A DNA stretch of 39,001 bases, from the NCBI GenBank assembly GCA_037720875.1, contig JBBJNO010000001.1, forward strand, positions 7,912 through 46,912, given 5' to 3'. The position numbers and the translations under genes are program-made. The notes beneath the pieces are model-generated. The model saw nothing but the letters and a program-made list of their open reading frames with translations. It was not told the origin of the DNA and made no database searches. Every line of letters begins with the position of its first letter. Positions within the stretch are counted from its first letter, which is position 1. The stretch comes from Luteimonas sp. (GTDB taxonomy: Bacteria; Pseudomonadota; Gammaproteobacteria; Xanthomonadales; Xanthomonadaceae). Shown piece by piece: positions 3 through 33,261 of this stretch.

Positions 3-506
3 TTGCGTTTGAAGAAACGGGTGATAGTGGACGTCATCGTGCTGGCCGGCCTGTACACGATCCGCATCATTGCCGGTTCGGTACTGGTGGCGGCCGCGTT
101 CTCGTTCTGGCTGCTGGCGTTTGCGATGTTCCTGTTCCTGAGCCTGGCAATGCTCAAGCGCTATACCGAATTGCTGTCCCTCCTCGACCAGGGCAAGGAC
201 AAGACCAGCGGCCGCGGTTACGACGTCGAGGACCGGCACCTGGTGCAATCGATGGGCACGGCAAGCGGCTACCAGGCGGTGCTGGTGCTGGCCCTGTACA
301 TCAACAGCACGGCCAGCGAACTGCTGTACCGCCGCCCGCAGGTGCTCTGGCTGCTGTGTCCACTGCTGCTGTACTGGATCAGCCGGGTGTGGATGATTGC
401 CCACCGCGGCCTGATGCGGGACGACCCGGTGGTGTTCGCGGTCACCGACCGCGCCAGCCAGGTCATCGTGCTGATCTGCGCACTCGTCGTGGCAGGCGCG
501 ATCTGA
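3..506 (+). CDS. UbiA-superfamily polyprenyl-phosphate phosphoribosyltransferase (Rv3806c-like), 5' end outside the window
   Basis: The frame is open to the window edge. The C-terminal region is hydrophobic and multi-helical (VLAGLYTIRIIAGS, FWLLAFAMFLFLSLAMLKRY, GYQAVLVLALYINS). Its stop overlaps the start of a clear DprE1 homolog by 1 nt (TGATG, 504-508). The family call rests partly on this context. Confidence 0.6.
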   Translation: MRLKKRVIVDVIVLAGLYTIRIIAGSVLVAAAFSFWLLAFAMFLFLSLAMLKRYTELLSLLDQGKDKTSGRGYDVEDRHLVQSMGTASGYQAVLVLALYINSTASELLYRRPQVLWLLCPLLLYWISRVWMIAHRGLMRDDPVVFAVTDRASQVIVLICALVVAGAI

Positions 507-1810
507 TGGCGGCAGGTCAGTCGTGGGGACGTTATCCCCAAGCAGAACAACGGCTGCTCACGCCTGCCCGTGCCGATCAGCCGATCGATGCCGGGGGCGA
601 CCGCTGGCTGCCCTATGGCAACGGACGCAGCTATGGCGACAGCTGCCTCAACGACGGCGGCACGCTGGTGCACACGCGGCGCCTGGATCATTACCTGGCC
701 TTCGATCCGGCCACCGGCCTGCTGCGCTGCGAATCGGGTGTGCAGCTGGCCGACATTCTCGCGCTGGTCGTGCCGCAGGGCTGGTTCCTGCCGGTGTCGC
801 CCGGCACCAAATACGTCACCGTGGGCGGCGCCATCGCCAACGACGTGCATGGCAAGAACCACCACCAGGCCGGTACCTTCGGCGAACACGTGCACTCCTT
901 GGAATTGCTGCGCAGCGATGGCGGACTCGGTTCCTGTAGCCGCCAGCACAATGCGGAACTGTTCACCGCGACCATCGGCGGCCTCGGCCTGACCGGCCTG
1001 ATCACTTCGGCGGAGATCGCACTGCGGCAGATTCCCGGCCCGTGGCTCGCCACCGAGAGTTGCAAGTTCGGCAACCTCGAAGAATTCTTTGCGTTGTCGG
1101 CCCAATCCGACCAGGCCAATGAATACACGGTGGCCTGGATCGATTGCACCGCGCGCGGCGCGGCGCTGGGCCGTGGCCTGTTCGCGCGCGGCAATCACGC
1201 CGCACCAGTAGTGACGCCGCGCGCACCCGCGCGCACCCGACTTGGCATGCCGTTCACGCCGCCGCTGTCCTTGGTCAACTCGTTGAGCCTGCGCGCGTTC
1301 AACACGCTTTACTGGCACCGGCAATGGCGTCAGCGTCGGGCGTCGGTCAGCCACTACGAACCGTTCTTCTATCCACTGGACGCGCTGGCCAACTGGAACC
1401 GCATGTACGGCCCGAAGGGCTTCCTGCAGTACCAATGCGTGGTGCCGCCCATTGGCGCGGCCGAGACGACTGCCGAACTTTTGCGACGCATCCAGGCCAG
1501 TGGCGCGGGGTCGTTCCTGGCCGTGCTCAAGCAGTTTGGCGATCGCCCGCCCGCAGGTCTGCTGTCGTTTCCGCGGGCAGGCACGACGCTGGCGCTGGAT
1601 TTCCCGATCGACCGGGCCGGCAGCGTCTTCAAGCTGCTCGACGGCCTGGACGACGTGGTGGCCGACGCCGGCGGCGCGGTCTACCCGGCCAAGGATGCGC
1701 GCATGTCGGGTCGGCGTTTCCGGCAATATTTCCCGGCCTGGGAGCAATTCCAGGCCTTCATCGACCCGCAGGTCTCGTCGAGTTTCTGGCGACGCGTCAT
1801 GGAATCCTGA
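506..1810 (+). CDS. dprE1: FAD-dependent decaprenylphospho-beta-D-ribofuranose 2'-oxidase homolog (DprE1-like)
   Basis: ORF 356..1810 trimmed to the ATG at residue 51 (506). Motifs GRSYGD, VTVGGAIANDVHGKNHH, GGLGLTG, FYPLDALANWNRMYGPKGFLQYQCVVP, LSFP....LDFP and YPAKDAR are colinear with M. tuberculosis DprE1 (Rv3790) as I recall its sequence. Confidence 0.9.
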   Translation: MAAGQSWGRYPQAEQRLLTPARADQPIDAGGDRWLPYGNGRSYGDSCLNDGGTLVHTRRLDHYLAFDPATGLLRCESGVQLADILALVVPQGWFLPVSPGTKYVTVGGAIANDVHGKNHHQAGTFGEHVHSLELLRSDGGLGSCSRQHNAELFTATIGGLGLTGLITSAEIALRQIPGPWLATESCKFGNLEEFFALSAQSDQANEYTVAWIDCTARGAALGRGLFARGNHAAPVVTPRAPARTRLGMPFTPPLSLVNSLSLRAFNTLYWHRQWRQRRASVSHYEPFFYPLDALANWNRMYGPKGFLQYQCVVPPIGAAETTAELLRRIQASGAGSFLAVLKQFGDRPPAGLLSFPRAGTTLALDFPIDRAGSVFKLLDGLDDVVADAGGAVYPAKDARMSGRRFRQYFPAWEQFQAFIDPQVSSSFWRRVMES

Positions 1811-1814
1811 GCAA

Positions 1815-2552
1815 ATGCAGAACGTGCTGATCATCGGAGCCACCTCGGCCATCGCCGAAGCCTGCGCGCGCAGGTATGCCGCCGCCGGCGCCGCCTTGTA
1901 CCTGACCGGTCGCGACGCCGCCCGGCTGCAGCTCATCGCCGCCGACCTGAGGGTGCGCGGCGCGCGCGCCGTGCATACCGATCTACTCGATGTCGTCGAC
2001 GACGCCCGACAGGAACAGGTAGTCGCAGCGGCCTGGCAGGCGCTCGAACGGGTGGACGTGGTGCTGGTCGCTCACGGCACCCTGCCCGACCAGGCCCGGT
2101 GCGAAACGTCCCCGGAATACGCGGTGGCCGAATTCAACCTCAACGCCACCGCCACCATCGCCCTGCTGACCCGGCTGGCACCGCGCATGGCGGCGCAGCG
2201 GCAGGGCAGCATTGCGGTGATCTCCTCGGTGGCGGGCGATCGCGGGCGCGCCAGCAATTACCTGTACGGCAGCGCCAAGGCCGCGGTCAGCGCGTTCCTG
2301 AGCGGACTGCGACAGCGGCTGTCGCGCGAAGGCGTCAACGTGCTGACCATCAAGCCAGGCTTCGTGGACACGCCGATGACCAGCCAGTTCCAGAAAGGGC
2401 CGCTGTGGGCCAGTCCGGACCAGGTGGCGGCCGGCATCCTGCGCGCCGTGGACAGGCGCCGGAGCGTGGCTTACCTGCCGTGGTTCTGGGCGGGAATCAT
2501 GCTGGTGATCAAGCACATCCCCGAATTCGTGTTCCGCAGGATCAGGCTGTGA
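1815..2552 (+). CDS. dprE2: Short-chain dehydrogenase, decaprenylphospho-2'-keto-ribofuranose reductase homolog (DprE2-like)
   Basis: ORF 1452..2552 trimmed to the ATG at residue 122 (1815), 4 nt after the dprE1 stop. It has an SDR N-terminus (IIGATSAIAEA), a catalytic YGSAK, and the C-terminal tail LPWFWAGIMLVIKHIPEFVFRRI, which matches the Rv3791 tail pattern. Confidence 0.85.
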   Translation: MQNVLIIGATSAIAEACARRYAAAGAALYLTGRDAARLQLIAADLRVRGARAVHTDLLDVVDDARQEQVVAAAWQALERVDVVLVAHGTLPDQARCETSPEYAVAEFNLNATATIALLTRLAPRMAAQRQGSIAVISSVAGDRGRASNYLYGSAKAAVSAFLSGLRQRLSREGVNVLTIKPGFVDTPMTSQFQKGPLWASPDQVAAGILRAVDRRRSVAYLPWFWAGIMLVIKHIPEFVFRRIRL

Positions 2553-3502
2553 GCGAGCCCGAACTGCAGGACGCGAAGGTCGTCCTCACCGGTGCCGCCG
2601 GCCTGGTCGGGCAGAACCTGCTGGTCGAACTTGAGGAGCTGGGTTACAGCCGACTGGTTGCCATCGATAAGCATGCGTACAACCTTGCGATCCTGCGGGA
2701 ACTGCACCCGCAGGTCCAGGTTGTCGAGGCGGATCTTGCCGAGCCAGGCGCCTGGCGGGATGTATTCGCCGGTGCACACATAGTCGTGCAACTGCATGCC
2801 CAGATCACCGGCAAGCACCATGCCCAGTTCGAACGCAACAACCTGGTTGCCACCCGGCATGTCCTGGATGCCTGCCGGCAGCATGGGGTGCCGTATCTGG
2901 TGCACATCAGCTCGTCGGTGGTCAATTCGGTCGCCGATGACAGCTATACGCAGACCAAGAAGTCGCAGGAAGCGCTGGTCATCGCCAGCAGCGTGCGTCA
3001 TTGCGTGCTGCGCCCCACCTTGATGTTCGGCTGGTTCGATCCCAAGCACTTGGGGTGGCTCTCGCGGTTCATGTCCAGGACACCGGTATTTCCCATCCCC
3101 GGCGACGGACGCTACATGCGCCAGCCCCTGTACGAGCGCGATTTCTGCCGTTGCATCGTTTGGTGCCTGCAACACCAGCCCGACGGCGCGGTTTATGACA
3201 TCGTCGGTGACACCCGCATTGACTACATCGACATCATCCGCACCATCAAGCGAGTCAAGAAGTTGCGTACCCTGATCGTCCCGATTCCGGTGCGGATGTT
3301 CGCCTTGCTGCTGCGTACCTATGCCTTGTTCTCGCGCAAACCTCCGTTCACCGCCGACCAGCTCATGGCACTGACGGCGGGCGACGATTTTCGGGGCACC
3401 GACACGGCGGCGTTGTTTGGCGTCAGGCAAACTCCGTTTGAAGAAGCCATCCGCGAGAGCTACTGCGATTCGCGCTACAGCCCCATTGTCCTGAAGCGAT
3501 GA
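2549..3502 (+). CDS. NAD-dependent epimerase/dehydratase (extended SDR)
   Basis: The GTG at 2549 overlaps the dprE2 stop (GTGA). A Rossmann motif VVLTGAAGLVGQNL lies at residues 11-24, and there is a YTQTK (YxxxK) motif. There is no in-frame ATG upstream of the Rossmann motif, so the GTG start is required. Confidence 0.8.
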   Translation: MSEPELQDAKVVLTGAAGLVGQNLLVELEELGYSRLVAIDKHAYNLAILRELHPQVQVVEADLAEPGAWRDVFAGAHIVVQLHAQITGKHHAQFERNNLVATRHVLDACRQHGVPYLVHISSSVVNSVADDSYTQTKKSQEALVIASSVRHCVLRPTLMFGWFDPKHLGWLSRFMSRTPVFPIPGDGRYMRQPLYERDFCRCIVWCLQHQPDGAVYDIVGDTRIDYIDIIRTIKRVKKLRTLIVPIPVRMFALLLRTYALFSRKPPFTADQLMALTAGDDFRGTDTAALFGVRQTPFEEAIRESYCDSRYSPIVLKR

Positions 3503-3506
3503 CCCC

Positions 3507-4814
3507 ATGATCCAAAAGCACTATGCAGTACTGGGCGCTGGCCCCATGGGCTTGATGGCCGCGCTGGAACTGCTACGGAAAGGCCACGTGGTGGACATCT
3601 ACGAGCGCGACGACCGCATCGGCGGCATGTCCGCCAGCTTCAACTTCGACGGACTGGAAATCGAGCGTTACTACCACTTCATCTGCAAGACGGACACGCC
3701 GTTGTTTGGGCTGCTTGACAATATGGGCATAGCCGACAAGCTCAAATGGTCCGACACCAAGATGGGCTATTTCTACAATGGCCATTTGTACAAATGGGGC
3801 TCTCCACTCGCGCTGCTTGCGTTCCCCAAGCTCGGCCTCATCAGCAAACTGCGCTATGCCCTGCACGTGATGGTGGCCAAGAACATCAGCGACTGGTCGC
3901 GGCTGAATCGGGTCAACGCGACCGCGTGGCTGCGCAAGTGGCTGGGCAAGCGCGGTTACGAAGTGCTGTGGCAGCGCACGTTTTACCTGAAGTTTTTTGA
4001 GTACACCGATCACCTGTCAGCCGCGTGGATCGGCACGCGCATTAAGCGTATCGCCCTGTCGCGCAGGAACCTCCTCCAGGAAAGCCTGGGTTACCTCGAG
4101 GGCGGTTCGCAGATACTGCTGGCGCGCATGGAGCAGGCCATCCTCGCACTTGGCGGGCGCATCCACCTGCGCAAGGGCATCGATCGCGTGGTTACCGAAC
4201 ATGGCACGGTCACTGGCATCCTGGTCGCAGGCCAGTTCCATCCCTGCGACGCCGTTGTCTCGACCGCACCCATCCAGTACATCCCGTCGCTCGCGCCGGA
4301 TCTGCCCGCCGACTTCGTCAGGCAAATCGGACGCGTCGAAAACATCCCGGTGGCGTGCGTGATCCTGAAGCTGCGACATTCGGTCAGCGAGAATTTCTGG
4401 ATGAACATCAGCGACCCGGACATGGGCATCCCCGGGATAATCGAATATTCAAACCTCAATCCTGGCACGCGCGAGGGTGAGCACATCGTGTATGCGCCGT
4501 TCTACATGCCCAAGACCCACCCCAAGTGGTCCAACAGCAACGATAAATTGATTTCGGAAGTCATCGGATACCTCGGCCGCATCAATCCAGCCTTTACCGA
4601 GGACTGGGTCATCGCCCGGCACTGCCACCGTTACGAATTCGCGCAAACCATTTGCCCGCCTGGCTTCATGGAAATCCTGCCGTCGATGCGCACGCCCTTG
4701 GCGGGTTTGTTCATGGCGGACACGTCTTACTACTACCCGGAAGACCGCTCGATCTCCGAAAGCATCCAGGCGGCGCGCAGGCTGGTTGATGAAGTGCTCG
4801 CGGAGCCTGCGTGA
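3507..4814 (+). CDS. FAD/NAD(P)-binding oxidoreductase (amine-oxidase / phytoene-desaturase-like fold)
   Basis: It has an N-terminal dinucleotide-binding motif, YAVLGAGPMGLMAALELLRKGHVVDIYERDDRIGG. The 435-aa ORF starts 4 nt after the previous stop. Its substrate is unknown. Confidence 0.8.
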   Translation: MIQKHYAVLGAGPMGLMAALELLRKGHVVDIYERDDRIGGMSASFNFDGLEIERYYHFICKTDTPLFGLLDNMGIADKLKWSDTKMGYFYNGHLYKWGSPLALLAFPKLGLISKLRYALHVMVAKNISDWSRLNRVNATAWLRKWLGKRGYEVLWQRTFYLKFFEYTDHLSAAWIGTRIKRIALSRRNLLQESLGYLEGGSQILLARMEQAILALGGRIHLRKGIDRVVTEHGTVTGILVAGQFHPCDAVVSTAPIQYIPSLAPDLPADFVRQIGRVENIPVACVILKLRHSVSENFWMNISDPDMGIPGIIEYSNLNPGTREGEHIVYAPFYMPKTHPKWSNSNDKLISEVIGYLGRINPAFTEDWVIARHCHRYEFAQTICPPGFMEILPSMRTPLAGLFMADTSYYYPEDRSISESIQAARRLVDEVLAEPA

Positions 4815-5206
4815 AGTCGGAGTTCCTGCGATTCATCGTCGTCGGCGCCATCGCCGCCATTGCCAATATCGGGTCGCGCATTGTCTTCAGTCAATGGATG
4901 GCATTTGTTCCCGCGATGGCAGTGGCCTTCGTGATCGGGCTGACGACCGCGTTCCTGCTCAATCGCAGCTGGGTGTTCATTGGAAGCGGCAAGCGGTGGT
5001 TCCATGAAGCGGCCTGGTTTCTAGGGATCAATCTCCTGGGCTTGGCACAGACATTGGCCATCGCCTGGGTGCTCGCACGACACCTACTACCATCACTTGG
5101 GCAACGTCTGTTGGTGATGGAAACGGCCCACAGCATCGGCGTAATCATTCCGATCCTTACCAGCTACCTCGGCCACAAATACTTCACCTTCAAGAGACGA
5201 CCCTGA
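4811..5206 (+). CDS. gtrA: GtrA-family small membrane protein (putative polyprenyl-phosphate-sugar translocation factor)
   Basis: The GTG start overlaps the previous stop (GTGA), with GGAG 5 nt upstream. It is 131 aa with 4 hydrophobic helices. It has the family pattern FLRFIVVGAIAAIANIGSR...NRSWVF...GHKYFTFK. Confidence 0.8.
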   Translation: MKSEFLRFIVVGAIAAIANIGSRIVFSQWMAFVPAMAVAFVIGLTTAFLLNRSWVFIGSGKRWFHEAAWFLGINLLGLAQTLAIAWVLARHLLPSLGQRLLVMETAHSIGVIIPILTSYLGHKYFTFKRRP

Positions 5207-5871
5207 TGTCCGACGACGATCTTCAGCAGCTGTACCGCCATCGTTTCGCCCAGAGCGAGCTGCCCGCCAAGAACGCAATCTGGGAGGTGCTTTGCAGATT
5301 TTTCTTCCAGCGGTTCGTCGATGCCGAGAACGACACCGTGCTGGACCTGGCGTGCGGCTATGGGGAGTTCATCAACAACATCCGGGCGAAGAAGAAAATC
5401 GCGGTTGACCTCAATCCTGACAGCCCCGCCGCGCTGCGCGATGGCATCGAATTTCATGCCGTGCGCGCCGATGCGCTCGAACCTGTCGCGTCGGGCACGG
5501 TCGACATCGTGTTCACGTCCAACTTCTTCGAGCACCTGCCGGACAAGACGGTGCTTGCCGAAGTGCTGCAGGAAATCAATCGCGTCCTCAGGCCTGGCGG
5601 CACGCTGATCGCCATGGGGCCCAATATCCGATACCTACCCGGCGAATACTGGGATTTCATCGATCACCATTTGCCGCTGTCCGAGCGATCCTTGACGGAG
5701 GCATTGCAGATGAGCGGATTCAGGATGACCCGCGTGGTGGATCGCTTCCTGCCCTACACGACTCAGTCGCGTCTCCCCAAGGCCCCGTTGCTGGTGCGGA
5801 TATATTTGAGTGTCCCGGCCGTATGGCGCTTCTTTGGAAAACAGTTTCTGGTTTTCGCAAGTAAGGCCTAG
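5206..5871 (+). CDS. Class I SAM-dependent methyltransferase
   Basis: It overlaps the gtrA stop by 1 nt (TGATG). Motif I is VLDLACGYGEF, and the post-I and motif II region is VDIVFTSNFFEHL...LRPGGTLI. Confidence 0.85.
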   Translation: MSDDDLQQLYRHRFAQSELPAKNAIWEVLCRFFFQRFVDAENDTVLDLACGYGEFINNIRAKKKIAVDLNPDSPAALRDGIEFHAVRADALEPVASGTVDIVFTSNFFEHLPDKTVLAEVLQEINRVLRPGGTLIAMGPNIRYLPGEYWDFIDHHLPLSERSLTEALQMSGFRMTRVVDRFLPYTTQSRLPKAPLLVRIYLSVPAVWRFFGKQFLVFASKA

Positions 5872-5884: not shown

Positions 5885-8245
5885 TCACGGAACAATGGTC
5901 ACTGGGAACTTGAATTCGGGACACAACTGCAGCTTTCCCGCATTGTTCATTCCCAGACCCAAGGCGTACTTGCCCCCGAATTCCGAGATGTCGCCCAAGG
6001 TGGTGAATCCCGACCCGCTCATCCTTGGGTTCTTGAAATATTTGCCTACGTCCGGACGCATGGCGAGCTGGGTGTTCAGATAATGGTGAACGCCTTTGGC
6101 ATCCGTCAGCACAACATAAACGGCATCCGCGAGCGATCCATTTTCGATCGAGCCGATCAGCCATCCCTCGACCCGGAGGGGGTCTGAAGTTGAAATGCTG
6201 ATCGCAGCGGGAAGCGCGTGGCCCAGCGCATCGATCGCGCCGGTGCATTTTTCCAGAGTCTGCGCATCTTGCGACGACAATGCTGCGTCAAAGTGATGGC
6301 GTTTGTTCAAACCCGGTATCTCAGGCACAGGTATCACCGGAACCTGGCTGAAGGCAAGCGAGTAAGTCCGGTTCCAGTCAAGGCTGTGCTCGGCGGCAGA
6401 AATCGATAGCGACTTGACTCGCTTCCAGTCCCTCAGGGGTTTTTCCGCATATAGCCGTGAAAACTCTTCCGCGTTTTCTATCAAGGGCGATATCACGAAC
6501 CCTGTTCTTGTCATCCCGGAAATGATGCGGTAGCGTCTTTGCTCGCCATTGCTCATCTCAAGACTGATCTGCAGCTGGGTTGGCTTGTACAGAACGCTTG
6601 CCATGAGTCCGGCTACGCTGGGCTTGATATCGATTTGTACGAATATTGGTCCGGTAGATGCGGGCAGCTCCACCTTTTCCCCAAAAGCATGATCCGCGCT
6701 TCCGAGTTTAATGGGCAGCGCTCGCGCACCTTCCTGTTGCCTCTTGCGCAGAACCAGAAATCCATTCTCAATCCGTTTAGGTTCGTACCCTGTGAGCAAC
6801 ATAGGCCAGCTGGCACCGTCATCCATGGATGGAAACCTCCAGTCAATCGGCTGCACCTTGAAGAAAATATTGTCAGGAGCCCGCTCAGACAACAAATGTT
6901 CACTGTTGGCCGTAGCCAGACCGGGTGTATACGCGGCATAACTCTGGAAAGCCGGGCGTGGAGACCAAGTGTTGCCGGAGGCAATGAGGAACGATTGATC
7001 GAACGAGTAGATATCAGAAGTGCCTTGCAAGAGGGACAGTGGCGACTGCGCTCGAAGAGATGCCAGTGAAGCATCGAATCGCCGCTTCAGCAGGGTTTCG
7101 TCCCTATACCGGCTCTTGAAACCATCCCACGCAGCCGCATAGGTGGACACTAGATTCTTGCCGAATCGATCGATGGAAGTCCTGATGAACTGCGCATCGA
7201 TCAGCGCCCACGAAAACACTGCGACGGCAATCGCAGGAAACGTGAAGTTGCTCGTGATCAAGGCAGGCAACAACAACGCTGCGAGAAGGATCGCCGTACC
7301 GGCAGTCACTGCGTGGCCGTCGTGGCGAACGAATCCCGCCTTGAATGAAACAAACAGGAACAGCGAAAAACCCAGTCCGAGAAACAGTCTTGCTGCCACG
7401 CTGCTTCTGGCTTTGCTAAAAAAAATTGCAACCAAGATCAAAACGCAGGCAGCAAGATACGCGATCACTTGGCCGAACATGCCCTCGGTGGCCATCGCCT
7501 CGGTGTAGCCAGCACTGCTCTGCGCCATGCGAATGACGTACTGGGGCAGCAGCGCAAGAGGTTGCCCCGCCAACAACCAGGACAACATCATGGCCGCTAC
7601 AGGAGAGGCCAAGCTGACAAGAGCGAGAGCGCGATGTTTTTTCAGCATCAAAAACAAGAAACACAAGGCAGCTGTTGCCGCGGCCAGGATCAGAGCCGAT
7701 CCTTTTATCAAGGGCAGGAATCCGAGTGGCGCAAAAGCAATGGCCACGTGCAAGGAGGCCCACCGGCTTGGGGCTCGAGATCCCTCTTCGGCGGAAACAA
7801 GATTGAAAATGACGATGTCGGCGAGCACGGCAAACGAAAGCAGCAACGGGTCGCGGAACATCAGCCCCGCATACAGTGCCCACAAGACGAGCATCCACCA
7901 TCGTTTGGCGTTGACCAGTACCAGGGCCAAAATTACAACGTAAGACAGAGCCAGGTAAATGCTGCCCGCCATCATCCGCAAATCCGTGCTCGGGTGATAC
8001 AGCTTCGTGTAGATCGAAGCGTATGGGCCTGAAGTGAAATTGATATCGCTCCCGAACGAGAGGCCTTGCGCGACGGCTTGATTCAGGCCCATCTGCCAGG
8101 ACGGATCTAGATTTCCAGCCGGCATTTCCGGGGTAAACGGCACAAAAATCGCCACGGCCGTAAGCAGCAGCAAGAGCCAGATACCGGCATCGAATATTTT
8201 ACCGAGCCTGTCCAAGCTGGCGCTCTTGTATGGATGTATTTGCAT
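5885..8245 (-). CDS. Large polytopic membrane protein with a C-terminal soluble domain; candidate GT-C-fold glycosyltransferase
   Basis: ORF 5885..8425 trimmed to ATG 8245 (MQIHPYKS...). The first roughly 430 aa contain at least 10 hydrophobic segments, with an acidic first loop (PEMPAGNLDPSWQMG). These are followed by roughly 350 aa of soluble, beta-rich sequence. I cannot name the family from sequence alone. Confidence 0.55.
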   Translation of the reverse strand: MQIHPYKSASLDRLGKIFDAGIWLLLLLTAVAIFVPFTPEMPAGNLDPSWQMGLNQAVAQGLSFGSDINFTSGPYASIYTKLYHPSTDLRMMAGSIYLALSYVVILALVLVNAKRWWMLVLWALYAGLMFRDPLLLSFAVLADIVIFNLVSAEEGSRAPSRWASLHVAIAFAPLGFLPLIKGSALILAAATAALCFLFLMLKKHRALALVSLASPVAAMMLSWLLAGQPLALLPQYVIRMAQSSAGYTEAMATEGMFGQVIAYLAACVLILVAIFFSKARSSVAARLFLGLGFSLFLFVSFKAGFVRHDGHAVTAGTAILLAALLLPALITSNFTFPAIAVAVFSWALIDAQFIRTSIDRFGKNLVSTYAAAWDGFKSRYRDETLLKRRFDASLASLRAQSPLSLLQGTSDIYSFDQSFLIASGNTWSPRPAFQSYAAYTPGLATANSEHLLSERAPDNIFFKVQPIDWRFPSMDDGASWPMLLTGYEPKRIENGFLVLRKRQQEGARALPIKLGSADHAFGEKVELPASTGPIFVQIDIKPSVAGLMASVLYKPTQLQISLEMSNGEQRRYRIISGMTRTGFVISPLIENAEEFSRLYAEKPLRDWKRVKSLSISAAEHSLDWNRTYSLAFSQVPVIPVPEIPGLNKRHHFDAALSSQDAQTLEKCTGAIDALGHALPAAISISTSDPLRVEGWLIGSIENGSLADAVYVVLTDAKGVHHYLNTQLAMRPDVGKYFKNPRMSGSGFTTLGDISEFGGKYALGLGMNNAGKLQLCPEFKFPVTIVP

Positions 8246-8884: not shown

Positions 8885-9283
8885 ATGCGTACCGTCATCT
8901 TCTATTCGCTGTTTGCCGGCATCGCGATGTTGATCAATCTCGCCACTCAAGCGACCGTGGTGCATTGGTATGCAGGGGCGTACGCCATACCGCTGTCGGT
9001 GCTCGCAGGTACGATTTCCGGTGTTTCTGTCAAATACGTACTGGACAAGAACTACATTTTTCGCAAGTCGTATTCGCGCATTGACCGGCATATCCGCTCC
9101 GCCTCTCTCTACCTGGTTGCCAGCGTGGCCACCACATTGATTTTCTGGGGGGTCGAAGCGGCATTCCATTTTGCCTTCGGGTCCGCGGAGATGCGTTATC
9201 TGGGCGGTGCAATCGGCTTGACCCTGGGTTACATCCTCAAATTCCATCTCGACAAGAAGTTTGCGTTTGGAGGGGATAGCTAG
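8885..9283 (+). CDS. gtrA: GtrA-family small membrane protein (second copy)
   Basis: It is 132 aa with four hydrophobic helices. It carries the family signatures KYVLDKNYIFRK and KFHLDKKFAFG. Confidence 0.8.
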   Translation: MRTVIFYSLFAGIAMLINLATQATVVHWYAGAYAIPLSVLAGTISGVSVKYVLDKNYIFRKSYSRIDRHIRSASLYLVASVATTLIFWGVEAAFHFAFGSAEMRYLGGAIGLTLGYILKFHLDKKFAFGGDS

Positions 9284-19188: not shown

Positions 19189-19242
19189 CTTCAATCATCT
19201 CGGAAATGTTTGCGGAAAGATTCCGGCCCAGGTCTCTGGGTC

Positions 19243-27181: not shown

Positions 27182-28138
27182 ATGGCGCTCATGCACTGGA
27201 AAAAGCTCGGGCACCTGTTCGCTCCAGACGGGAGCATCCATTGGATGCGCACGCATGCCGCGAACCCATTCGGGATCTGGATCGGCCCGGGTTTGCTGAA
27301 GGTCTTTTTCACCTCGCGCGATGAGCATCAGCGCTCGCATATCGCCAGCGTCATCGTGAACGTGGCCAAGGATTTTGAGCTGGGCAAGCCGGACAGCGAG
27401 CCGGTGCTGGCACCGGGACCACCGGGCGCATTCGACGACAGCGGCTGTGCCGTGGGTTGCGTGTTGCCGGTCGGCGACAGCGTGCGCCTTTACTATCTCG
27501 GATGGAATCTCAAGGTCACTGTTCCTTGGCTCAACAGCATCGGCTTGGCGATCCAGGGGATGGGCGGCGGTGCGTTCGAGCGCTATTCTCCGGCCCCGCT
27601 GATGGACCGCAGTCGTGAAGACCCTTTCAGCATTTCCTATCCAAGCGTCCTGCACGAAAATGGTCGATGGCGCATGTGGTATGGCTCCAACCTCCAGTGG
27701 GGTGAGCGAGCGGAGGACATGCAACATGTGATCAAGTACGCAGAGTCGCGGGACGGTCTGGAGTGGTCGCGCAGCGGGACAATTGCGGTGAACTTGGTCC
27801 ACCGGAACGAGTTTGCACTCTCGAAACCGTTCGTCGTCCGCGATTTGGATCGCTACCGCATGTGGTACTCGTATCGTGGTCGCGGCGACATCAGCAGCTA
27901 TCGCATCGGCTATGCGGAATCGATGGACGGCGTGGCGTGGACGCGGATGGACGCGAACGCCGGCATTGACGTCTCGGAGCACGGCTGGGACAGCGAAATG
28001 GTTTGCTACCCGTTTGTGTTCGACCATGCCGGCAGACGCTACATGCTCTACAACGGGAATGGATACGGCAGGACCGGATTCGGGGTCGCCGTGCTCGAGG
28101 AGTCGAACCCAAGCATGACCAACAAAGTGAGAACATAA
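27182..28138 (+). CDS. Five-bladed beta-propeller (GH43/32/68-clan-like) protein of unknown role
   Basis: It has repeated blade-like W/Y-rich segments (RLYYLGWN, GRWRMWYGSN, YRMWYSYRG, RYMLYNGNG) and DG..W motifs (RDGLEWSR, MDGVAWTR). The fold assignment comes from pattern recall and is not verified. Confidence 0.5.
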   Translation: MALMHWKKLGHLFAPDGSIHWMRTHAANPFGIWIGPGLLKVFFTSRDEHQRSHIASVIVNVAKDFELGKPDSEPVLAPGPPGAFDDSGCAVGCVLPVGDSVRLYYLGWNLKVTVPWLNSIGLAIQGMGGGAFERYSPAPLMDRSREDPFSISYPSVLHENGRWRMWYGSNLQWGERAEDMQHVIKYAESRDGLEWSRSGTIAVNLVHRNEFALSKPFVVRDLDRYRMWYSYRGRGDISSYRIGYAESMDGVAWTRMDANAGIDVSEHGWDSEMVCYPFVFDHAGRRYMLYNGNGYGRTGFGVAVLEESNPSMTNKVRT

Positions 28139-28139
28139 G

Positions 28140-28514
28140 ATGCGTAGCTGGGTAGCCTACTGCTTGGTGGCATCGACCGTCCTACTGACGGTAAGCGGCC
28201 AGTTCATCGTGAAATGGCAAGTGCTCCGCGCGGGAAGCGTTCCTACCGGATTGCAGCAGCAATTGAGGTTTATTGTCCAACTCCTTCTAGACCCTTGGGT
28301 GCTGTCCGCGTTCGCCGCCGCCTTCCTGGCGTCCATCACGTGGATGCTTGCCATGACCAAGCTCCAGCTCAGCCATGCCTATCCAATGACTGCGCTGACT
28401 TTCGTTCTGGTCGTACTGGGCAGTGCATTCGTCTTTCACGAGCAGCTCACCCCACTCAAGCTCGTGGGACTTGCCCTTATCGTGGCGGGTATCGTTGTCG
28501 GGAGCCAAGGATGA
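28140..28514 (+). CDS. SMR/EamA-like four-helix membrane protein (ArnE/ArnF-like undecaprenyl-phosphate-aminosugar flippase subunit candidate)
   Basis: It is 124 aa with 4 TM helices. The segment LQLSHAYPMTALTFVLVVLGSAFVFHEQLTPLKLVGLALIVAGIVV matches the ArnE/ArnF pattern. The ATG lies 1 nt after the upstream stop. Confidence 0.7.
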   Translation: MRSWVAYCLVASTVLLTVSGQFIVKWQVLRAGSVPTGLQQQLRFIVQLLLDPWVLSAFAAAFLASITWMLAMTKLQLSHAYPMTALTFVLVVLGSAFVFHEQLTPLKLVGLALIVAGIVVGSQG

Positions 28515-29386
28515 GACTGTGCCTCCAGTGCGCGCAGCCCTATGTCAGCAACGCCCCAACCTGCACTCATTGCAACCATTCCGAGAAGGTGGTTGATGGC
28601 GTACCCCGTTATGCACCTGAGATGGCGCTGAGCGGCGTTGGCTTCCGGCCCGAGTACTTCGATGAGCTCGCTGAGCTCGAGGCCAGGAATTTCTGGTTCC
28701 GCGGCCGCAATAACCTCGTCATCGACACGATCCGCCGGTTCTTTCCGGCGCCGCGCAACTTCCTCGAAGTCGGCTGTGGTACCGGCTTCGTACTATCGGG
28801 TATCGCCCGTGCATTCCCGCGCACGCAGTTGAGCGGAAGTGAGTTGTTTTTGGAAGGCCTGGTGCATGCGGCCCAGCGTCTACCCGAGGCGCACCTGATG
28901 CAGATGGACGCGCGCCGGATTCCCTATACCGCCGAGTTCGACCTGGTTGGCGCATTCGATGTCATCGAGCACATCGAGGACGACGATATCGTGCTGTTGG
29001 CCATCAACGAGGCATTGGTGCCAGGAGGTGGCGTCGTACTCACCGTTCCGCAGCACCCGTGGTTGTGGAGCCATTCGGACGACTATGCGTGCCACGTCCG
29101 CCGATATAGACGCGGCGAGCTCGAGGAAAAGCTGGCGCGCGCCGACTTCAACGTGGTGTACAGCACGTCGTTTGTCACCCTGCTCTTTCCGCTTCTGGCG
29201 CTGTCCCGTCTGTCTTCCCGCCAAGCCGCCGGTCCCAATCACGATCCCAGCGCCGAGCTGAAGCTCGGGAGGATCACCAATGCCATCCTGTACGCGGTAG
29301 TGCAGGTGGAGCGGCAGTTGATTCGGCTTGGAGTCCGTTTCCCGTTCGGCGGTACCCGCCTCGTTTTCGCAGTGAAGAATCCATGA
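28511..29386 (+). CDS. Class I SAM-dependent methyltransferase with an N-terminal Cys4 zinc-ribbon
   Basis: ORF 28214..29386 trimmed to ATG 28511 (ATGA overlap). It has CLQC...CTHC at residues 4-24. Motif I is FLEVGCGTGFV, followed by FDVIEHIEDD. Confidence 0.8.
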   Translation: MRLCLQCAQPYVSNAPTCTHCNHSEKVVDGVPRYAPEMALSGVGFRPEYFDELAELEARNFWFRGRNNLVIDTIRRFFPAPRNFLEVGCGTGFVLSGIARAFPRTQLSGSELFLEGLVHAAQRLPEAHLMQMDARRIPYTAEFDLVGAFDVIEHIEDDDIVLLAINEALVPGGGVVLTVPQHPWLWSHSDDYACHVRRYRRGELEEKLARADFNVVYSTSFVTLLFPLLALSRLSSRQAAGPNHDPSAELKLGRITNAILYAVVQVERQLIRLGVRFPFGGTRLVFAVKNP

Positions 29387-30513
29387 GAATCCCCTTTAAC
29401 AAGCCCTACATGACCGGCCAGGAACTGGCTTATATCGCCCAGGCCCATTCCAACGCACATCTGTCCGGCGACGGCCCCTTCACCAAGGACTGCAATGCCT
29501 GGCTTGAGAACGCCACGGGCTGCCGCAAGGCGCTGCTAACCCACTCGTGCACGGCGGCCCTCGAGATGTCGGCGATACTGCTGGACCTCCAGCCTGGCGA
29601 CGAAGTCATCATGCCTTCGTTTACGTTCGTTTCTACAGCGAACGCCTTCGTTCTGCGCGGCGCGGTTCCAGTCTTTGTCGACATCCGTCCCGACACGCTA
29701 AACATCGATGAGCGACTCATTGAGGCAGCGATCACCTTGCGCACGCGCGCCATCTGCGTCGTTCATTACGCGGGCGTTTCGTGCGAGATGGATGCTATCT
29801 GCGCGATTGCTCGCAAGCACGGCCTTGCCGTCGTCGAGGACGCGGCGCAGGGAATGTTTTCCACTTACACAGGCCGTCCGCTGGGAAGCTTCGGCGAGTT
29901 GGGCGCGCTGAGCTTCCACGAAACCAAGAACGTCATCTCCGGCGAGGGCGGCGCCCTTCTCATTAACCACCCAGGGATGCTCGAGCGTGCCGAGATCATC
30001 CGCGAGAAAGGAACCAACCGCAGCAAGTTTTTGCGTGGTCAGGTCGACAAATACACCTGGGTGGACATCGGTTCGTCGTTTCTGCCCGGCGAAATCATCG
30101 CCGCATTCCTGAAAGCCCAGCTCGAGCAGGCTCAGGTGATCACGGAGCGGCGGATGGCGATCTGGGACCGCTACCACGATTGGGCCAAAGTGCACGAGGA
30201 CGCCGGGCGGGCGCGGCGCCCCATCATTCCCGCACACTGCCAGCACAACGCGCACATGTACTACCTCCTGATGCCGGACCTTGCGGCTCGGACGAGGTTC
30301 ATCAACGCGCTCAAGGTCCGGGGAATCGGGGCGGTGTTCCACTACATCCCCCTGCATAGCGCTCCGGCAGGCCAGCGCTACGGACGCACGTCCGGCCAGC
30401 TCCCGGTCACCGATGCGACAAGCGAACACTTGGTGCGGCTGCCGCTTTGGGCCGGCATGGAGGTCCACCTGGACGAAGTGCTTGAGGCCGCCGACACTGC
30501 GTTGAGTGCCTGA
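29383..30513 (+). CDS. wecE: DegT/DnrJ/EryC1-family PLP aminotransferase, closest to dTDP-4-amino-4,6-dideoxygalactose transaminase (WecE/RffA)
   Basis: It overlaps the upstream gene with ATGA. It has long colinear matches to E. coli WecE as I recall it: IPFNKP, CTAALEMSAILLDLQPGDEVIMPSFTFVSTANAFVLRGAVPVFVDIRPDTLNIDE, VVEDAAQG, SFHETKN, ERAEIIREKGTNRSKFLRGQVDKYTWVDIGSS and VFHYIPLHSAPAG. Confidence 0.85.
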   Translation: MRIPFNKPYMTGQELAYIAQAHSNAHLSGDGPFTKDCNAWLENATGCRKALLTHSCTAALEMSAILLDLQPGDEVIMPSFTFVSTANAFVLRGAVPVFVDIRPDTLNIDERLIEAAITLRTRAICVVHYAGVSCEMDAICAIARKHGLAVVEDAAQGMFSTYTGRPLGSFGELGALSFHETKNVISGEGGALLINHPGMLERAEIIREKGTNRSKFLRGQVDKYTWVDIGSSFLPGEIIAAFLKAQLEQAQVITERRMAIWDRYHDWAKVHEDAGRARRPIIPAHCQHNAHMYYLLMPDLAARTRFINALKVRGIGAVFHYIPLHSAPAGQRYGRTSGQLPVTDATSEHLVRLPLWAGMEVHLDEVLEAADTALSA

Positions 30514-30906: not shown

Positions 30907-30951
30907 AGCACTGTAAATGCCGCTACACTCAAAGAATCCAGCACAGCACCT

Positions 30952-33261
30952 TCATCGCCCACGATGATCTTCGGTCCCTTGCCTCAGCGGTAAGGCCGGG
31001 CCACCCTGCGGCCTTGTGCGACGAGTTACGGAAATATCTGAGATTGAGAAGGCCAACATACGCGGATCACCAGTGCCGGGTGAGCATGCTGATTCAGTGG
31101 TGGTAATCGGAAGTGTCGACGTTCCAGACGAAAGGACCGTATCCAACGTCACCGTCGTCGACTGTCCGGCCTGAAGCACGGCATTCTTGCTGGATGTTCC
31201 GGCCCCCACGGTCACGCGCCGCGGACATAACGTCGCCACCTTCATTGAAATGCGGACCGGCGCGGATATTCCGTCCCGGCTGGTCAAGCTGAGTGAGGCG
31301 TTGCCCTTGCTCCAGCTCCATTTGTGTGCTGTATCAGCGCCCTCCCAACCAAAAAACCCCTCACCCAGCTCTATCCCGTATTCACCAAGGCGTGGAATGT
31401 CCGGGTAGTAGCTAAACACCAAGTTGTCCACGTCGATCTTCCAATCGGCCCGTACAGTGACCGATGGAAAATCGTCGTCCTGCTGGCTCATGTCGATCGC
31501 GGCGGCGAAAAAACTGTCGGCAGCATTGGCAATCGGGACGCCCTCCACCAATACATTTGGTTCGATAGACTCGCCGTCGGACAACGTGCCAACCAAATTC
31601 ACCTTGCGGTTTCTTCCGTAGCTATACACCACGACAACATTGCTTCTTACGCCCGAGCCGTTCGAGATGTCCACCTGATCTTTGATGGGCGCGTAGATAA
31701 GGAACTGGTTGTCGGTGTGTGGCTCCTGTAGATACTTCATGTAAACGACGCTTCCAGTCGGTGCCGCGCGAGCTTGAGCGGCGTCGGACGTCACCAATAC
31801 CTTCTTGCCGGATCTTCTACTGAAGTACTCCGACCAATAGGCAGGGTGAATCGCCACTATGCCCCTCGCGCTGAAAAGACTAGGGGCCAGAATCGTCGAA
31901 TTATTGGGAAGCGCTCGGAATTCCTTGGTAAGCAGAAAATTGTCCACTACTTTCCACTTTATGTTGGACAGGCGCTCGTCCTGAGTGACGTAGTAGTTGT
32001 TGAAGTCAGTAACCAAACTGATCGCAGCGGTCAGTGCCGCCACTACAAATATCAGCACCCTCTTGGCCCCTATCCGTGCCTGCAGGTGTCCGAGCAGCCA
32101 AGTAATAAACAGCGCAAGAAAGAAAATAATCGCGATGTACGAGTAGTAGGTGTGGACGAAGGATGTGCTGCCGCCTTCCACCCAGCCGCGGTATTTTTCG
32201 GTGAGCGAAAGCAAGACATTGGGCAGGAATACGCAAACAAGCGAAATTACTAATCCCCATCGCAGGAATGTCGGCCGCGGCCGTAGCGCCAGTTGGCAAA
32301 GGATGAGCCCAACGGCATACGCCGTAATCGCGGATTTGACGATCCACTCCACCCGGAGCTCAGATGCCAAAGTACTTAGGTCATACTGCGAGAGCCCATA
32401 GCTTGTCATCAGGTTCCCATGCTGACGAGCCACCAAGGCCTCGAATCCCGGGAATGCGGACATCGAGTACGTCCAGACAACGTTGATCATTCTGGACAGC
32501 CCGCTCGCACTTGGAATATTCCCTTCGTATTGCGAGGGGAACGCCAGTCGCCAGGCCACATAGAGGAAGAGGTACGCGAACAGCGCCGCGGCAACCGGCA
32601 GGACTTTCTTCGCGGCAGTTGCCAGCCCCCGAAAGCGTCCACCAGCAACGCCATTTCGCGCACGCTCATGGACGGCAGCAATGACGACGAATACGGGGAA
32701 AAACAGAACGAAGTGCTCACCGGATAGGGAGAGGAAATAGAGAGCGGCGGCCAAAAGGCCGTAAAGGCCGCCTTTCTCCAAGTACTTGATGAAACTAGCG
32801 ACCGAACCTAGAAATGCAATCGCGAGCATGTTGATCAATAATGGATACGATGTCAGAGCGTTGTGATTCCAATTATTCTGTACAAACGCCAAAAAGAGGA
32901 CTACTGCCAGCGCCCCCAAGGGCGTTGACCTGTAAATACCACGCAAGAATACAAACACCATCAGCAATAGCAGGGCAGGCCCTGCGAACCTGATGGCGTT
33001 GTAATAAATAGGATTGTCAAACAGATACGGGGCAACCAGCAGTGGCGTACCGAAGAAGAACCCGATTCGTCCTTGCTCTTTCGCATAATGCAGTGGACTG
33101 ATCGTGTGCCAGTCCGACGCGATGGCGAGGTCATCGTTCGTCGTGAAGCCTGTAGACAAAAGCGGAAAATACGTTAACAGGAACATCAGCCCAATCATCA
33201 GCAGGATGATTTTATTTTGTGCGGCGGATTCGTTTTGGATGGGAAGTACTGGTGTTTCCAT
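30952..33261 (-). CDS. GT-C-fold membrane glycosyltransferase (ArnT/PMT-like) with a large C-terminal periplasmic domain
   Basis: ORF trimmed to ATG 33261, with AGGA 8 nt upstream. There are roughly 12 hydrophobic segments. The first-loop motif is STGFTTNDDLAIASDW (a DD motif). A C-terminal stretch of about 330 aa is soluble. The gene has markedly low GC. Confidence 0.7.
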   Translation of the reverse strand: METPVLPIQNESAAQNKIILLMIGLMFLLTYFPLLSTGFTTNDDLAIASDWHTISPLHYAKEQGRIGFFFGTPLLVAPYLFDNPIYYNAIRFAGPALLLLMVFVFLRGIYRSTPLGALAVVLFLAFVQNNWNHNALTSYPLLINMLAIAFLGSVASFIKYLEKGGLYGLLAAALYFLSLSGEHFVLFFPVFVVIAAVHERARNGVAGGRFRGLATAAKKVLPVAAALFAYLFLYVAWRLAFPSQYEGNIPSASGLSRMINVVWTYSMSAFPGFEALVARQHGNLMTSYGLSQYDLSTLASELRVEWIVKSAITAYAVGLILCQLALRPRPTFLRWGLVISLVCVFLPNVLLSLTEKYRGWVEGGSTSFVHTYYSYIAIIFFLALFITWLLGHLQARIGAKRVLIFVVAALTAAISLVTDFNNYYVTQDERLSNIKWKVVDNFLLTKEFRALPNNSTILAPSLFSARGIVAIHPAYWSEYFSRRSGKKVLVTSDAAQARAAPTGSVVYMKYLQEPHTDNQFLIYAPIKDQVDISNGSGVRSNVVVVYSYGRNRKVNLVGTLSDGESIEPNVLVEGVPIANAADSFFAAAIDMSQQDDDFPSVTVRADWKIDVDNLVFSYYPDIPRLGEYGIELGEGFFGWEGADTAHKWSWSKGNASLSLTSRDGISAPVRISMKVATLCPRRVTVGAGTSSKNAVLQAGQSTTVTLDTVLSSGTSTLPITTTESACSPGTGDPRMLAFSISDISVTRRTRPQGGPALPLRQGTEDHRGR

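Follow-up and report, generated by a model that had tools for sequence, protein, structure and literature searches.

How many different sugars can one locus add to an exported O-antigen? The question is raised by a 39,001-nucleotide stretch of a Luteimonas genome (GenBank assembly GCA_037720875.1, contig JBBJNO010000001.1, positions 7,912 to 46,912; we call this whole stretch the window). It encodes three large membrane proteins, here named A, B, and C, among the genes for making and exporting a predicted D-rhamnan. A first-pass annotation had proposed that the window encodes a multi-branch periplasmic decoration system in an O-antigen locus of the ABC-transporter type. We identified the genes by scanning the long open reading frames (ORFs) of the window with Pfam and NCBIfam, and all of the genes listed in that annotation are real and lie at or very near the positions that it gave. 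We also found that A, B, and C each have conserved partners of their own, which supports the proposal. With moderate confidence, we favor the view that three lipid-linked-sugar modules decorate the D-rhamnan in the periplasm.

The partnerships were drawn from about 125 related loci. For A, we searched 80 genome loci and 3 loci from a Pseudomonas veronii look-up with all of the window's proteins. For B, we examined 3 looked-up loci and 37 metagenome loci. (The flanks that we fetched extend at most 10 kb, and C lies 20-25 kb from A and B in the window.) Three modules can be distinguished. In module 1, A is accompanied by a UbiA protein with a HAD domain (HAD-UbiA), DprE1-like and DprE2-like proteins, an extra short-chain dehydrogenase/reductase (SDR), a flavoprotein, and a GtrA1-type protein. 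In module 2, B is accompanied by UbiA, DprE1, DprE2, and a GtrA2-type protein, and never by the SDR or the flavoprotein. Module 3 combines C with a GtrB/ArnC-like family 2 glycosyltransferase (GT2), an N-acetyltransferase, a small flippase, a methyltransferase, and a WecE/VioA-type aminotransferase. The window is a hybrid: it has the A-type and the B-type sets on one UbiA-DprE1-DprE2 trunk, plus a complete C-type module.

Because modules 1 and 2 share one UbiA-DprE1-DprE2 set, the pathway for the pentofuranose donors should be branched. The first-pass annotation had counted two lipid-linked donor pathways. There are indeed two synthases, but the branching of the trunk means that they probably make three donors. 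The modules are also separable and are gained and lost independently, as shown by the closest genome locus (L012, from a metagenome-assembled genome of the Lysobacteraceae), which has the A cassette without B or C.

The A cassette occupies the left end of the window, where the genes are on the plus strand and are translationally coupled, with overlapping starts. The UbiA-family polyprenyl-phosphate phosphoribosyltransferase (PPPRS) is represented by its C-terminal 167 amino acids (3..506; NCBIfam NF006088, 243 bits, profile positions 315-479), as the 5' part of the gene is cut off by the start of the window. The fragment has weaker matches to models for decaprenyl-phosphate phosphoribosyltransferase. 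In L012, a 490-amino-acid ORF with the HAD motif 'DLDGT' near its N-terminus matches the fragment at 85% identity over its C-terminus, and homologues of the fragment carry both the HAD and the UbiA domains of Pfam. The DprE1-like FAD oxidase follows (506..1810; PF01565); its start codon (ATG at 506) directly adjoins the stop of UbiA (504-506), and it scores 360 bits against the DprE1 model NF053785, which has a cutoff of 500. The DprE2-like SDR reductase (1815..2552; adh_short) scores 188 bits against the DprE2 model NF053786 (cutoff 250), and its top match is a generic SDR model (NF005489, 337 bits, above the cutoff). The reaction of this pair may differ from the exact mycobacterial one. The order of UbiA and the DprE1 and DprE2 homologues is kept across related loci.

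Together with a GtrA protein and a methyltransferase, these genes form the operon (3-5871) that had been recognized as being of the decaprenylphosphoryl-arabinose (DPA) type. Two further members had not been singled out. One is an extended SDR of the 'NAD-dependent epimerase' family (2549..3502, plus strand; PF01370), with its YxxxK motif at Y136-K140 and a start that overlaps the dprE2 stop. It is a candidate for a second epimerase or reductase. The other is a FAD protein with the amine-oxidase fold, from the PRK07233 family (3507..4814, plus strand; PF01593; NF005560, 515 bits, cutoff 252), with distant matches to isoprenoid desaturases of the HpnE/CrtI type. The operon ends with GtrA1 (4811..5206; PF04138, 71 bits), which is the candidate flippase for the A branch, and an S-adenosylmethionine (SAM)-dependent methyltransferase, MT1 (5206..5871; Methyltransf_11/23/25), which is an optional member of the cassette. 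A itself (786 amino acids, with beta-rich domains at the C-terminus) is on the minus strand (5885..8245), convergent on this operon. Between A and the divergent gene for GtrA2 lies a 640-bp non-coding gap (8246-8884), in which the contained ORFs have no database matches; it probably holds the promoters of both genes.

Outside of Legionella, the typical A cassette comprises HAD-UbiA, DprE1-like, DprE2-like, A, the SDR, the flavoprotein, and GtrA; a methyltransferase may be present as well. Across the 83 A-family loci, and mostly in those that are not from Legionella, we found UbiA near A in 29, DprE1 in 32, DprE2 in 34, the SDR in 38, the flavoprotein in 38, a GtrA1-type gene in 32, and the methyltransferase in 18. 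The SDR, the flavoprotein, and A co-occur in 38 related loci. The SDR and the flavoprotein are strictly tied to A-type loci and are missing from B-type loci. Similarly, GtrA1 orthologues (39-46% identity) are found in A-type cassettes, and none of the 83 loci contains B, C, or a GtrA2-type gene. A is no more than 10 kb away from wzm and/or wzt in 7 of the related genome loci. In L012, the gene order is metB-wzm-wzt-GT4RgpF-A plus the cassette, at 70-85% identity to the window (77% for MetB), so that A comes directly after the GT4-RgpF gene.

Homologues of A also occur in other settings. When we compared A to plasmids with tblastn, we found one full-length match. In a Burkholderia stagnalis megaplasmid (NZ_CP156687.1, 11860-21243), a self-contained cassette of eight genes (A, methyltransferase, UbiA, DprE1, DprE2, SDR, flavoprotein, and GtrA, all with generic annotations in RefSeq) adjoins isonitrile-synthase genes. 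More than 25 loci from the Legionella family (including L021, L026, L028, L031-L035, L038-L041, L043, L045, L046, and L050) encode a short form of A, whose match ends at around residue 635 of the query; the short form seems to lack the last C-terminal domain. In one of the loci from P. veronii (L001), the neighbors of the cassette (15735-21238) are an integrase, a ParE/RHH pair, and a Tn3 transposase, and the cassette may therefore be mobile. The same locus encodes a 609-amino-acid protein (4344-6173) that has no Pfam match and does not belong to family A, B, or C. Its gene closes the glycosyltransferase operon immediately upstream of HAD-UbiA, and it may be another GT-C enzyme.

B (9426..11270, minus strand, 614 amino acids) is encoded by the last gene of the wzm-wzt-GT operon of the window, and the end of such an operon, close to UbiA, DprE1, and DprE2, is also the typical position in other genomes. 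Of the B-family loci, 18 are 12 kb or longer; among these, 12 have both DprE1 and DprE2, 10 have UbiA, and 7 have a GtrA gene that matches GtrA2, not GtrA1. None of the 18 has A or the flavoprotein, and their sole 'SDR' matches are noise at 21% identity. GtrA2 (8885..9283, plus strand; NF037976 gtrA_1, 153 bits) is the second of the two GtrA proteins that had been reported in the window and is the candidate flippase for the B branch. Its orthologues (40-50% identity) lie beside UbiA, DprE1, and DprE2 in B-type loci. For example, the B locus of Pseudomonas nitroreducens contains two GT4-RgpF genes, B, HAD-UbiA, DprE1, DprE2, and a GtrA2-type gene. A tblastn search of plasmids with B gave no match. 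In two B-type loci from Methylomonas (L084 and L085, 14873-15827), a membrane protein of the LPG_synthase_TM family is encoded between UbiA and DprE1. It occupies the position of GtrA in other loci, and it may be a third type of flippase. (In these loci, the HAD phosphatase is a separate gene.)

C (30952..33261, minus strand, 769 amino acids) is encoded at the end of an operon that also contains rmd, gmd, a double GT4, and a methyltransferase, and that is convergent on a plus-strand operon for an aminosugar (24141-30513). The plus-strand operon begins with a WbqC-like protein (24141..24971; PF08889, 269 bits), on whose function we found nothing useful in the literature. Next is the GT2 (24973..25899; PF00535), which has two C-terminal transmembrane (TM) helices and is a candidate polyprenyl-phosphate sugar synthase. 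The following genes encode a SAM methyltransferase, MT2 (25896..26531; Methyltransf_12/25), conserved in the related locus L089; a sugar N-acetyltransferase of the NeuD/PglB/VioB family (26528..27172; TIGR03570, 169 bits, above the cutoff); a weakly GH130-like protein (27182..28138), which has weak matches only and is 77% conserved in L089; and a 124-amino-acid EamA/SMR-type protein with four TM segments (28140..28514; PF00892, above the cutoff). The latter is ArnE/F-like and is the candidate flippase for the C branch. The operon is completed by another SAM methyltransferase, MT3, with an N-terminal Cys4 motif (28511..29386; Methyltransf_23), whose ATG at 28511 overlaps the upstream stop, and by the aminotransferase (29383..30513). 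MT3 is conserved along with WecE in L087 and L089.

The first-pass annotation had described the GT2 and the small transporter as ArnC-like and ArnE/F-like. Both proteins are present, with scores below the cutoffs of the Arn models: the GT2 scores 131 bits for ArnC and 172 bits for PgfS (also below its cutoff), and the transporter scores about 43 bits for each of ArnE and ArnF. An Arn-like aminosugar donor had been proposed as well, and this we reject. The aminotransferase fits the WecE/VioA type (dTDP-4-keto-6-deoxyglucose 4-aminotransferase; TIGR02379, 600 bits, and NF008687, 599 bits, both above the cutoffs) and not ArnB (200 bits, cutoff 631), and ArnA, ArnD, and ArnT had no match anywhere in our scans of the window. 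Judging from these family assignments, the donor is predicted to be a derivative of a dTDP-4-amino-4,6-dideoxyhexose and not 4-amino-4-deoxy-L-arabinose (L-Ara4N).

The C-type block recurs in three other loci (L087-L089). In these loci, C homologues adjoin the GT2, the acetyltransferase, the flippase, MT3, the WecE aminotransferase, and multi-GT4 genes. The flippase of the C module is a GtrA protein in L087 and L088 (3268-3739) and an ArnE/F-like protein in the window (28140-28514) and in L089 (7893-8267). As the rest of the module is conserved, these two kinds of small transporter are evidently interchangeable. The C block as a whole has the features of a Gtr-type or wxcK-O-type system: in one block, it encodes a GT2 with C-terminal TM helices, a small flippase, a GT-C protein, and nucleotide-sugar enzymes.

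We then asked whether A, B, and C are all GT-C transferases, as had been claimed. Each has about 11-13 hydrophobic helices near the N-terminus and then a soluble C-terminal part of 230-400 amino acids. Comparisons by sequence to Pfam, NCBIfam, and PDB, using single sequences and family profiles, gave nothing useful for any of them, and profile-profile comparisons of A, B, and C to each other found no significant homology between their membrane parts (probability 9-30%). For A and C, we used structure prediction and a fold search, which the first-pass annotation had suggested. The AlphaFold2 model for A (from 36 sequences) has a mean pLDDT of 85.9. The best match to this model in PDB, as found by Foldseek, is the archaeal oligosaccharyltransferase AglB (E ~8e-4, probability 0.99), along with ArnT, Pmt4, and Pmt1/2. 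All of the matches to membrane proteins with a probability of at least 0.89 are to AglB, ArnT, or Pmt, which are all GT-C enzymes. (The top 50 also include unrelated matches of low probability.) The model for C (from 48 sequences) has a pLDDT of 90.2, and its sole match to a membrane protein is to AftD, a mycobacterial arabinofuranosyltransferase (probability 1.00). The two C-terminal beta-sandwich domains of C resemble carbohydrate-binding modules (CBMs) and match glycosidases that bear CBMs. An alternative identity for A and C, as an O-antigen ligase or Wzy, was rejected, as there is no such fold among the top 50 matches. The modeled structures thus make a good, if not airtight, case that A has the GT-C fold, and a case of the same strength for C.

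For B, the link to GT-C enzymes comes from a motif and from distant homology. B has about 12 TM segments and then a soluble domain of about 235 amino acids. Its D38 and D39, in 'ELADDGAFFLRYAEN', are invariant in 33 homologues, and in the family the motif 'ADDxAFFLRYAEN' is invariant and lies directly after TM1. Four of the 33 homologues match Pfam's GT87 (PF09594; best E-value 1.5e-5), and several homologues are named GT87 or RgtA/B/C/D-like at their source. The window's B itself has no match in Pfam, and the profile of its family has none in PDB. B is a probable GT-C enzyme with a distant likeness to GT87, and it is a candidate arabinofuranosyltransferase. The claim that two of the three proteins have a DD motif in the first loop proved to be correct. 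Besides B, C has D43 and D44 in 'GFTTNDD', and among 48 homologues D43 never varies, with D44 conserved to at least 90%. A lacks a DD motif; instead, it has a nearly invariant D47, in 'LDPSW' of the same loop.

Families A and C are large and have no informative names. A has at least 853 clusters of homologues, all of them hypothetical or unnamed. For C, a word-indexed search found 8 relatives and an exhaustive profile search found 1,876 representatives; looking up the clusters of the C family gave no informative names. A C-terminal domain of about 90 amino acids ('RPDVG...') is common to A (residues ~692-782) and to the long members of the B family (hhalign probability 94.8%); the window's B does not have it. 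This part of A has a weak match (E-value 0.02) to an N-acetylmuramoyl-L-alanine amidase chain in PDB.

The polymer that would be decorated is encoded by the rest of the window, which is best explained as a locus for the O-antigen of lipopolysaccharide (LPS), of the type found in the Lysobacteraceae/Xanthomonadaceae and marked by metB. In xanthomonads, LPS loci are flanked by metB. The polysaccharide genes are tightly packed, and their HMM matches are strong and not due to chance. The GC content varies from 51% to 67% across the window, and we found no tRNA genes, transposase-like ORFs, or insertion sequence (IS) elements in it. A long minus-strand operon (23115 to 9426) encodes, in this order, ManC (GDP-mannose pyrophosphorylase/isomerase, 21658..23115; PF00483, PF01050), a metB-like cystathionine gamma-lyase/synthase (20187..21380; PF01053, 507 bits), the ABC-2 permease Wzm (19318..20190; PF01061), a rhamnan-synthesis glycosyltransferase of the GT4 + RgpF type (16822..19194; PF05045, PF13692, PF00534), the ABC ATPase Wzt with its C-terminal carbohydrate-binding domain Wzt_C (15283..16767; PF00005, PF14524), a Methyltransf_24 protein with a long coiled coil (13733..15286; PF13578, with SMC-like coiled-coil matches at residues 241-496), another GT4 + RgpF enzyme (11385..13736; PF05045, PF00534), and B. 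The metB-like gene has a counterpart beside wzm in L012 (77% identity), and its stop overlaps the wzm start; it is a landmark of the locus and not part of the polysaccharide pathway. By analogy to WbdD, the coiled-coil methyltransferase is a candidate chain terminator.

The operon that ends with C begins with an Rmd-like GDP-4-keto-6-deoxymannose reductase (37967..38881; PF16363, PF01370) and Gmd (GDP-mannose 4,6-dehydratase, 36996..37970; PF16363, 419 bits), both on the minus strand. Downstream are a polymerase-like double GT4 with two Glycos_transf_1 stretches (34482..36962), which is 73% identical to the gene adjoining the C homologue in L089, and a SAM methyltransferase, MT4 (33400..34356; Methyltransf_23/11). 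The rhamnan core of the first-pass annotation (Wzm, Wzt, GT4 enzymes, ManC, Gmd, and Rmd) is thus borne out by HMM matches. With Wzm, a Wzt that has a C-terminal CBM, and the Methyltransf_24 coiled-coil protein, the window has what is expected for an O-antigen that is exported by an ABC transporter and capped at its terminus. No Pfam match to Wzx or Wzy was found among 43 candidate ORFs (other overlapping ORFs of at least 100 amino acids were outside the scan). In the gap of about 1 kb between manC and the WbqC operon, where the GC content drops to about 0.55, there is a 195-amino-acid ORF (23521-24108, plus strand) that encodes a signal peptide and a lipobox-like 'LSTAGC' and weakly matches DUF11. 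It may be a lipoprotein, or it may mark the boundary of a module.

How might the system work? ManC, Gmd, and Rmd would provide GDP-D-rhamnose, and the two GT4-RgpF enzymes and the double GT4 would assemble the polymer in the cytoplasm, with undecaprenyl diphosphate as its carrier. The coiled-coil methyltransferase would then (probably) cap the chain, the CBM of Wzt would recognize the cap, and Wzm/Wzt would export the polymer. This follows the logic of Escherichia coli O9a and Citrobacter youngae O1 (Table S1 of PMC11127046). For the B branch, HAD-UbiA would make polyprenyl-phosphate-ribofuranose (polyprenyl-P-Ribf) from phosphoribosyl pyrophosphate (PRPP), the DprE1-like and DprE2-like proteins would epimerize it at C2 to give polyprenyl-P-D-arabinofuranose (polyprenyl-P-Araf), GtrA2 would flip it, and B would transfer the Araf. 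For the A branch, the SDR (2549-3502) and the FAD protein (3507-4814) would convert part of the same lipid-linked pool further. As in DprE1/DprE2, a FAD oxidase is here paired with an SDR reductase, which suggests a second epimerization by oxidation and reduction; the two may be a further oxidase/reductase couple of that kind. MT1 might methylate the product, GtrA1 would flip it, and A would transfer it. For the C branch, the WecE/VioA-type enzyme would aminate dTDP-4-keto-6-deoxyglucose (a precursor that requires RmlA and RmlB), the VioB-type enzyme would N-acylate it, and WbqC and the methyltransferases would perform accessory steps. The GT2 would load the N-acyl-4-amino-4,6-dideoxyhexose onto undecaprenyl phosphate, the ArnE/F-like protein would flip it, and C would attach the sugar.

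Several observations weigh against this reading. We infer the identities of the sugars and their acceptors, the branching of the donors, and the meeting of all three decorations on one polymer. The DprE1-like and DprE2-like proteins are both below NCBI's equivalog cutoffs, the TM-scores of the Foldseek matches for A and C are low (0.26-0.30, due to the multi-domain models), and the sequence links that make B a GT-C enzyme are weak. In addition, rmlA/rmlB, an initiating transferase, and a ligase are all missing from the window. (In xanthomonads, rmlA/rmlB are in a separate conserved locus.) The block with the aminosugar genes, C, gmd, and rmd lies beyond metB, outside of the canonical metB-etfA interval, so it could serve another glycan. 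And A's acceptor need not be the O-antigen everywhere, given that the megaplasmid cassette stands alone, with no O-antigen genes nearby, and that most of the short A genes in Legionella have no UbiA/DprE1/DprE2/SDR/flavoprotein cassette within 10 kb.

In one alternative, the modules do not converge: B and C would act on the O-antigen, and the A cassette (or the C block) would act on something else, such as pilin, the core or lipid A, or a second polysaccharide that is encoded elsewhere. The placement of the C block and the contexts of A in Burkholderia and Legionella favor this, as do the integrase and Tn3 genes that adjoin the cassette in P. veronii. There is also a precedent, in that pilin glycosylation in Pseudomonas aeruginosa uses DPA-type donors (PMC11127046). 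But the 39 kb encode just one export system, B and C are contiguous and co-directional with O-antigen glycosyltransferase genes, and A is near wzm and/or wzt in the 7 genome loci and immediately follows a GT4-RgpF gene in L012. A and C also have CBM-like C-terminal domains, as does ORF12 of C. youngae, which binds the O-antigen. We consider non-convergence to be unlikely. A mosaic formed by recombination, in which at least one module is a non-functional leftover and fewer than three decorations are made, would fit with the highly mosaic LPS loci of xanthomonads, which are shaped by horizontal transfer, with the varying GC content of the window (0.51-0.67), and with the absence of B and C from its closest relative. 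Yet all of the reading frames are intact and full-length with conserved catalytic motifs, the gene starts are tightly coupled, and there are no IS elements or tRNA genes, which makes such a mosaic very improbable.

What does the A cassette make? It might be a lipid-linked pentofuranose that has not been described in any glycan, produced by the second oxidase/reductase couple acting on polyprenyl-P-Araf; two dedicated GtrA/GT-C pairs would then keep the two related donors apart. This proposal is tentative, and we see it as somewhat unlikely. Under it, a possible product is D-lyxofuranose, by inversion at C3; another possibility is a change at C5/C4. The product may also be O-methylated. Inversion at both C2 and C3 would give lyxofuranose (Lyxf), which is absent from all solved structures (PMC11127046). 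If the proposal is true, A, B, and C would each be the first member of a new GT-C family. Alternatively, A and B might use a single donor, polyprenyl-P-Araf, and differ in the position or the anomeric configuration in which they add the sugar. In that case, neither the SDR nor the flavoprotein would act on the sugar: they might modify the polyprenyl chain, as the flavoprotein's distant relatives are isoprenoid desaturases, or be a redundant epimerase. In favor of this, ORF12 is promiscuous for its donor, and in mycobacteria one DPA donor serves many GT-C enzymes (PMC11127046). But the SDR and the flavoprotein are strictly A-type and are missing from B-type systems, and the A and B families each have their own GtrA subtype, for which distinct donors would account more readily. 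A shared donor, with the SDR and the flavoprotein acting elsewhere, seems quite unlikely to us.

Returning to the view that we favor, of three decorations on one rhamnan, each module is of a kind that has been described; what is unusual is the presence of all three together, with two of them sharing one donor pathway. O-antigens owe much of their diversity to decoration in the periplasm, and such decoration affects recognition by phages, by immune systems, and, for xanthomonads, by plants. The partner sets could help to annotate three large and mostly hypothetical or unnamed families (at least 853 clusters for A and about 1,900 representatives for C). The hybrid window is also a natural test of whether two donors can be drawn from one lipid-linked pentofuranose pool, and it can reveal the role of the widespread SDR/flavoprotein pair and whether GtrA subtypes discriminate between donors. 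In the literature, we found no described case in which A-type and B-type pentofuranose systems are fused on one donor trunk, nor one in which such a fused system is combined with an aminosugar module, and we found no functional assignment for the A, B, or C families or for the SDR/flavoprotein pair. Nevertheless, the novelty that the first-pass annotation claimed was overstated, given the precedents in PMC11127046 (2024) and in the wxcK-O genes of Xanthomonas. The general principle has already been published, so the advance is incremental and not conceptual.

How does the window compare to known systems? Multiple GT-C enzymes can act on one polymer in strains of Shigella and Salmonella with several gtr operons, and also in the synthesis of mycobacterial arabinan. 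Like the window, the Gtr (GtrA/GtrB/GtrC), Klebsiella gmlABC, and ArnC/E/F/T systems rely on a GT2 that makes a polyprenyl-P-sugar, on a small flippase, and on a GT-C in the periplasm. The window differs in its predicted donor, which is not glucose, galactose, or L-Ara4N, and in that ArnA, ArnB, ArnD, and ArnT are absent or unmatched; also, unlike in the Arn system, the predicted acceptor is a polymer and not lipid A.

The mycobacterial DPA pathway, with its Emb/Aft GT-C arabinofuranosyltransferases, and the pilin arabinosylation by TfpW of P. aeruginosa resemble what we predict for the window: a UbiA PPPRS, a DprE1-type FAD oxidase, a DprE2-type SDR, a GtrA/SMR-type flippase, and the use of one lipid-linked pentofuranose pool by several GT-C enzymes. 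C also has its fold match in AftD, and B is distantly linked to GT87. In contrast to mycobacteria, the window has a Gram-negative host, an acceptor that is probably an O-antigen, DprE1 and DprE2 proteins below the equivalog cutoffs, and a fused HAD phosphatase, and it would add side-chain decorations instead of polymerizing an arabinan.

In Xanthomonas campestris pv. campestris, wxcK-wxcO (wxc region 3) provide a Fuc3NAc branch on a D-rhamnan. As in the window, an aminotransferase, an acetyltransferase, and a GtrB-like GT2 (WxcL) adjoin gmd/rmd, and the wxc LPS region is associated with metB and has wzm/wzt export. By their descriptions, the small GtrA-like WxcN and the membrane protein WxcO (~750 amino acids) parallel the window's flippase and C. 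The window differs in having an ArnE/F-like flippase, extra genes (WbqC, GH130-like, and methyltransferases), a WecE/VioA-type aminotransferase, and no FdtA-type isomerase; its predicted sugar is a 4-amino, not a 3-amino, 6-deoxyhexose.

For the pentofuranose branches, the precedent is the three-component decoration (PPPRS, flippase, and GT-C) of ABC-dependent D-Rha/Man O-antigens (Kelly et al., PNAS 2024, PMC11127046). In these systems, a PPPRS and a phosphatase make undecaprenyl-P-Ribf, epimerases act on it in the cytoplasm, a small transporter moves it, and a GT-C with a CBM transfers the sugar (PMC11127046). In the window, we found the corresponding UbiA PPPRS, GtrA genes (putative flippases) with partner GT-C genes, and the GT-C fold of A. 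In the published systems, as is predicted for the window, further epimerases alter the pentose (DprE1/E2 for Araf and an SDR for Xylf), and elaborate Xanthomonas systems with several epimerases or GT-Cs had already been flagged (PMC11127046). C. youngae O1/O2 (ORF15-ORF14-ORF12, ORF13) has several features in common with the window: the O-antigen is ABC-dependent and contains D-Rha, with Wzt-C and a terminator, and there are a small flippase, a GT-C transferase with a C-terminal CBM, and a UbiA-type PPPRS that is fused to a HAD phosphatase and makes polyprenyl-P-Ribf from PRPP. The catalytic residues of ORF12 (GT136) are D31/E34/Y35, H106, and R349/Y350 (PMC11127046). A and B show no EpsG-type signature, and their loop motifs differ from D31/E34/Y35: by eye, none of the first-loop motifs 'LDPSW', 'ADDxxFFLRY', and 'TTNDD' has the DxxEY spacing of ORF12, and A, B, and C have no EpsG-type match in Pfam. 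The flippases differ as well, being of the GtrA type in the window's pentofuranose branches and ArnE/F-like in C. youngae. Unlike C. youngae, the window has an amine-oxidase-fold flavoprotein as an obligate part of its cassette, and it places two GT-C enzymes and two GtrA-type flippases on one PPPRS-DprE1-DprE2 set.

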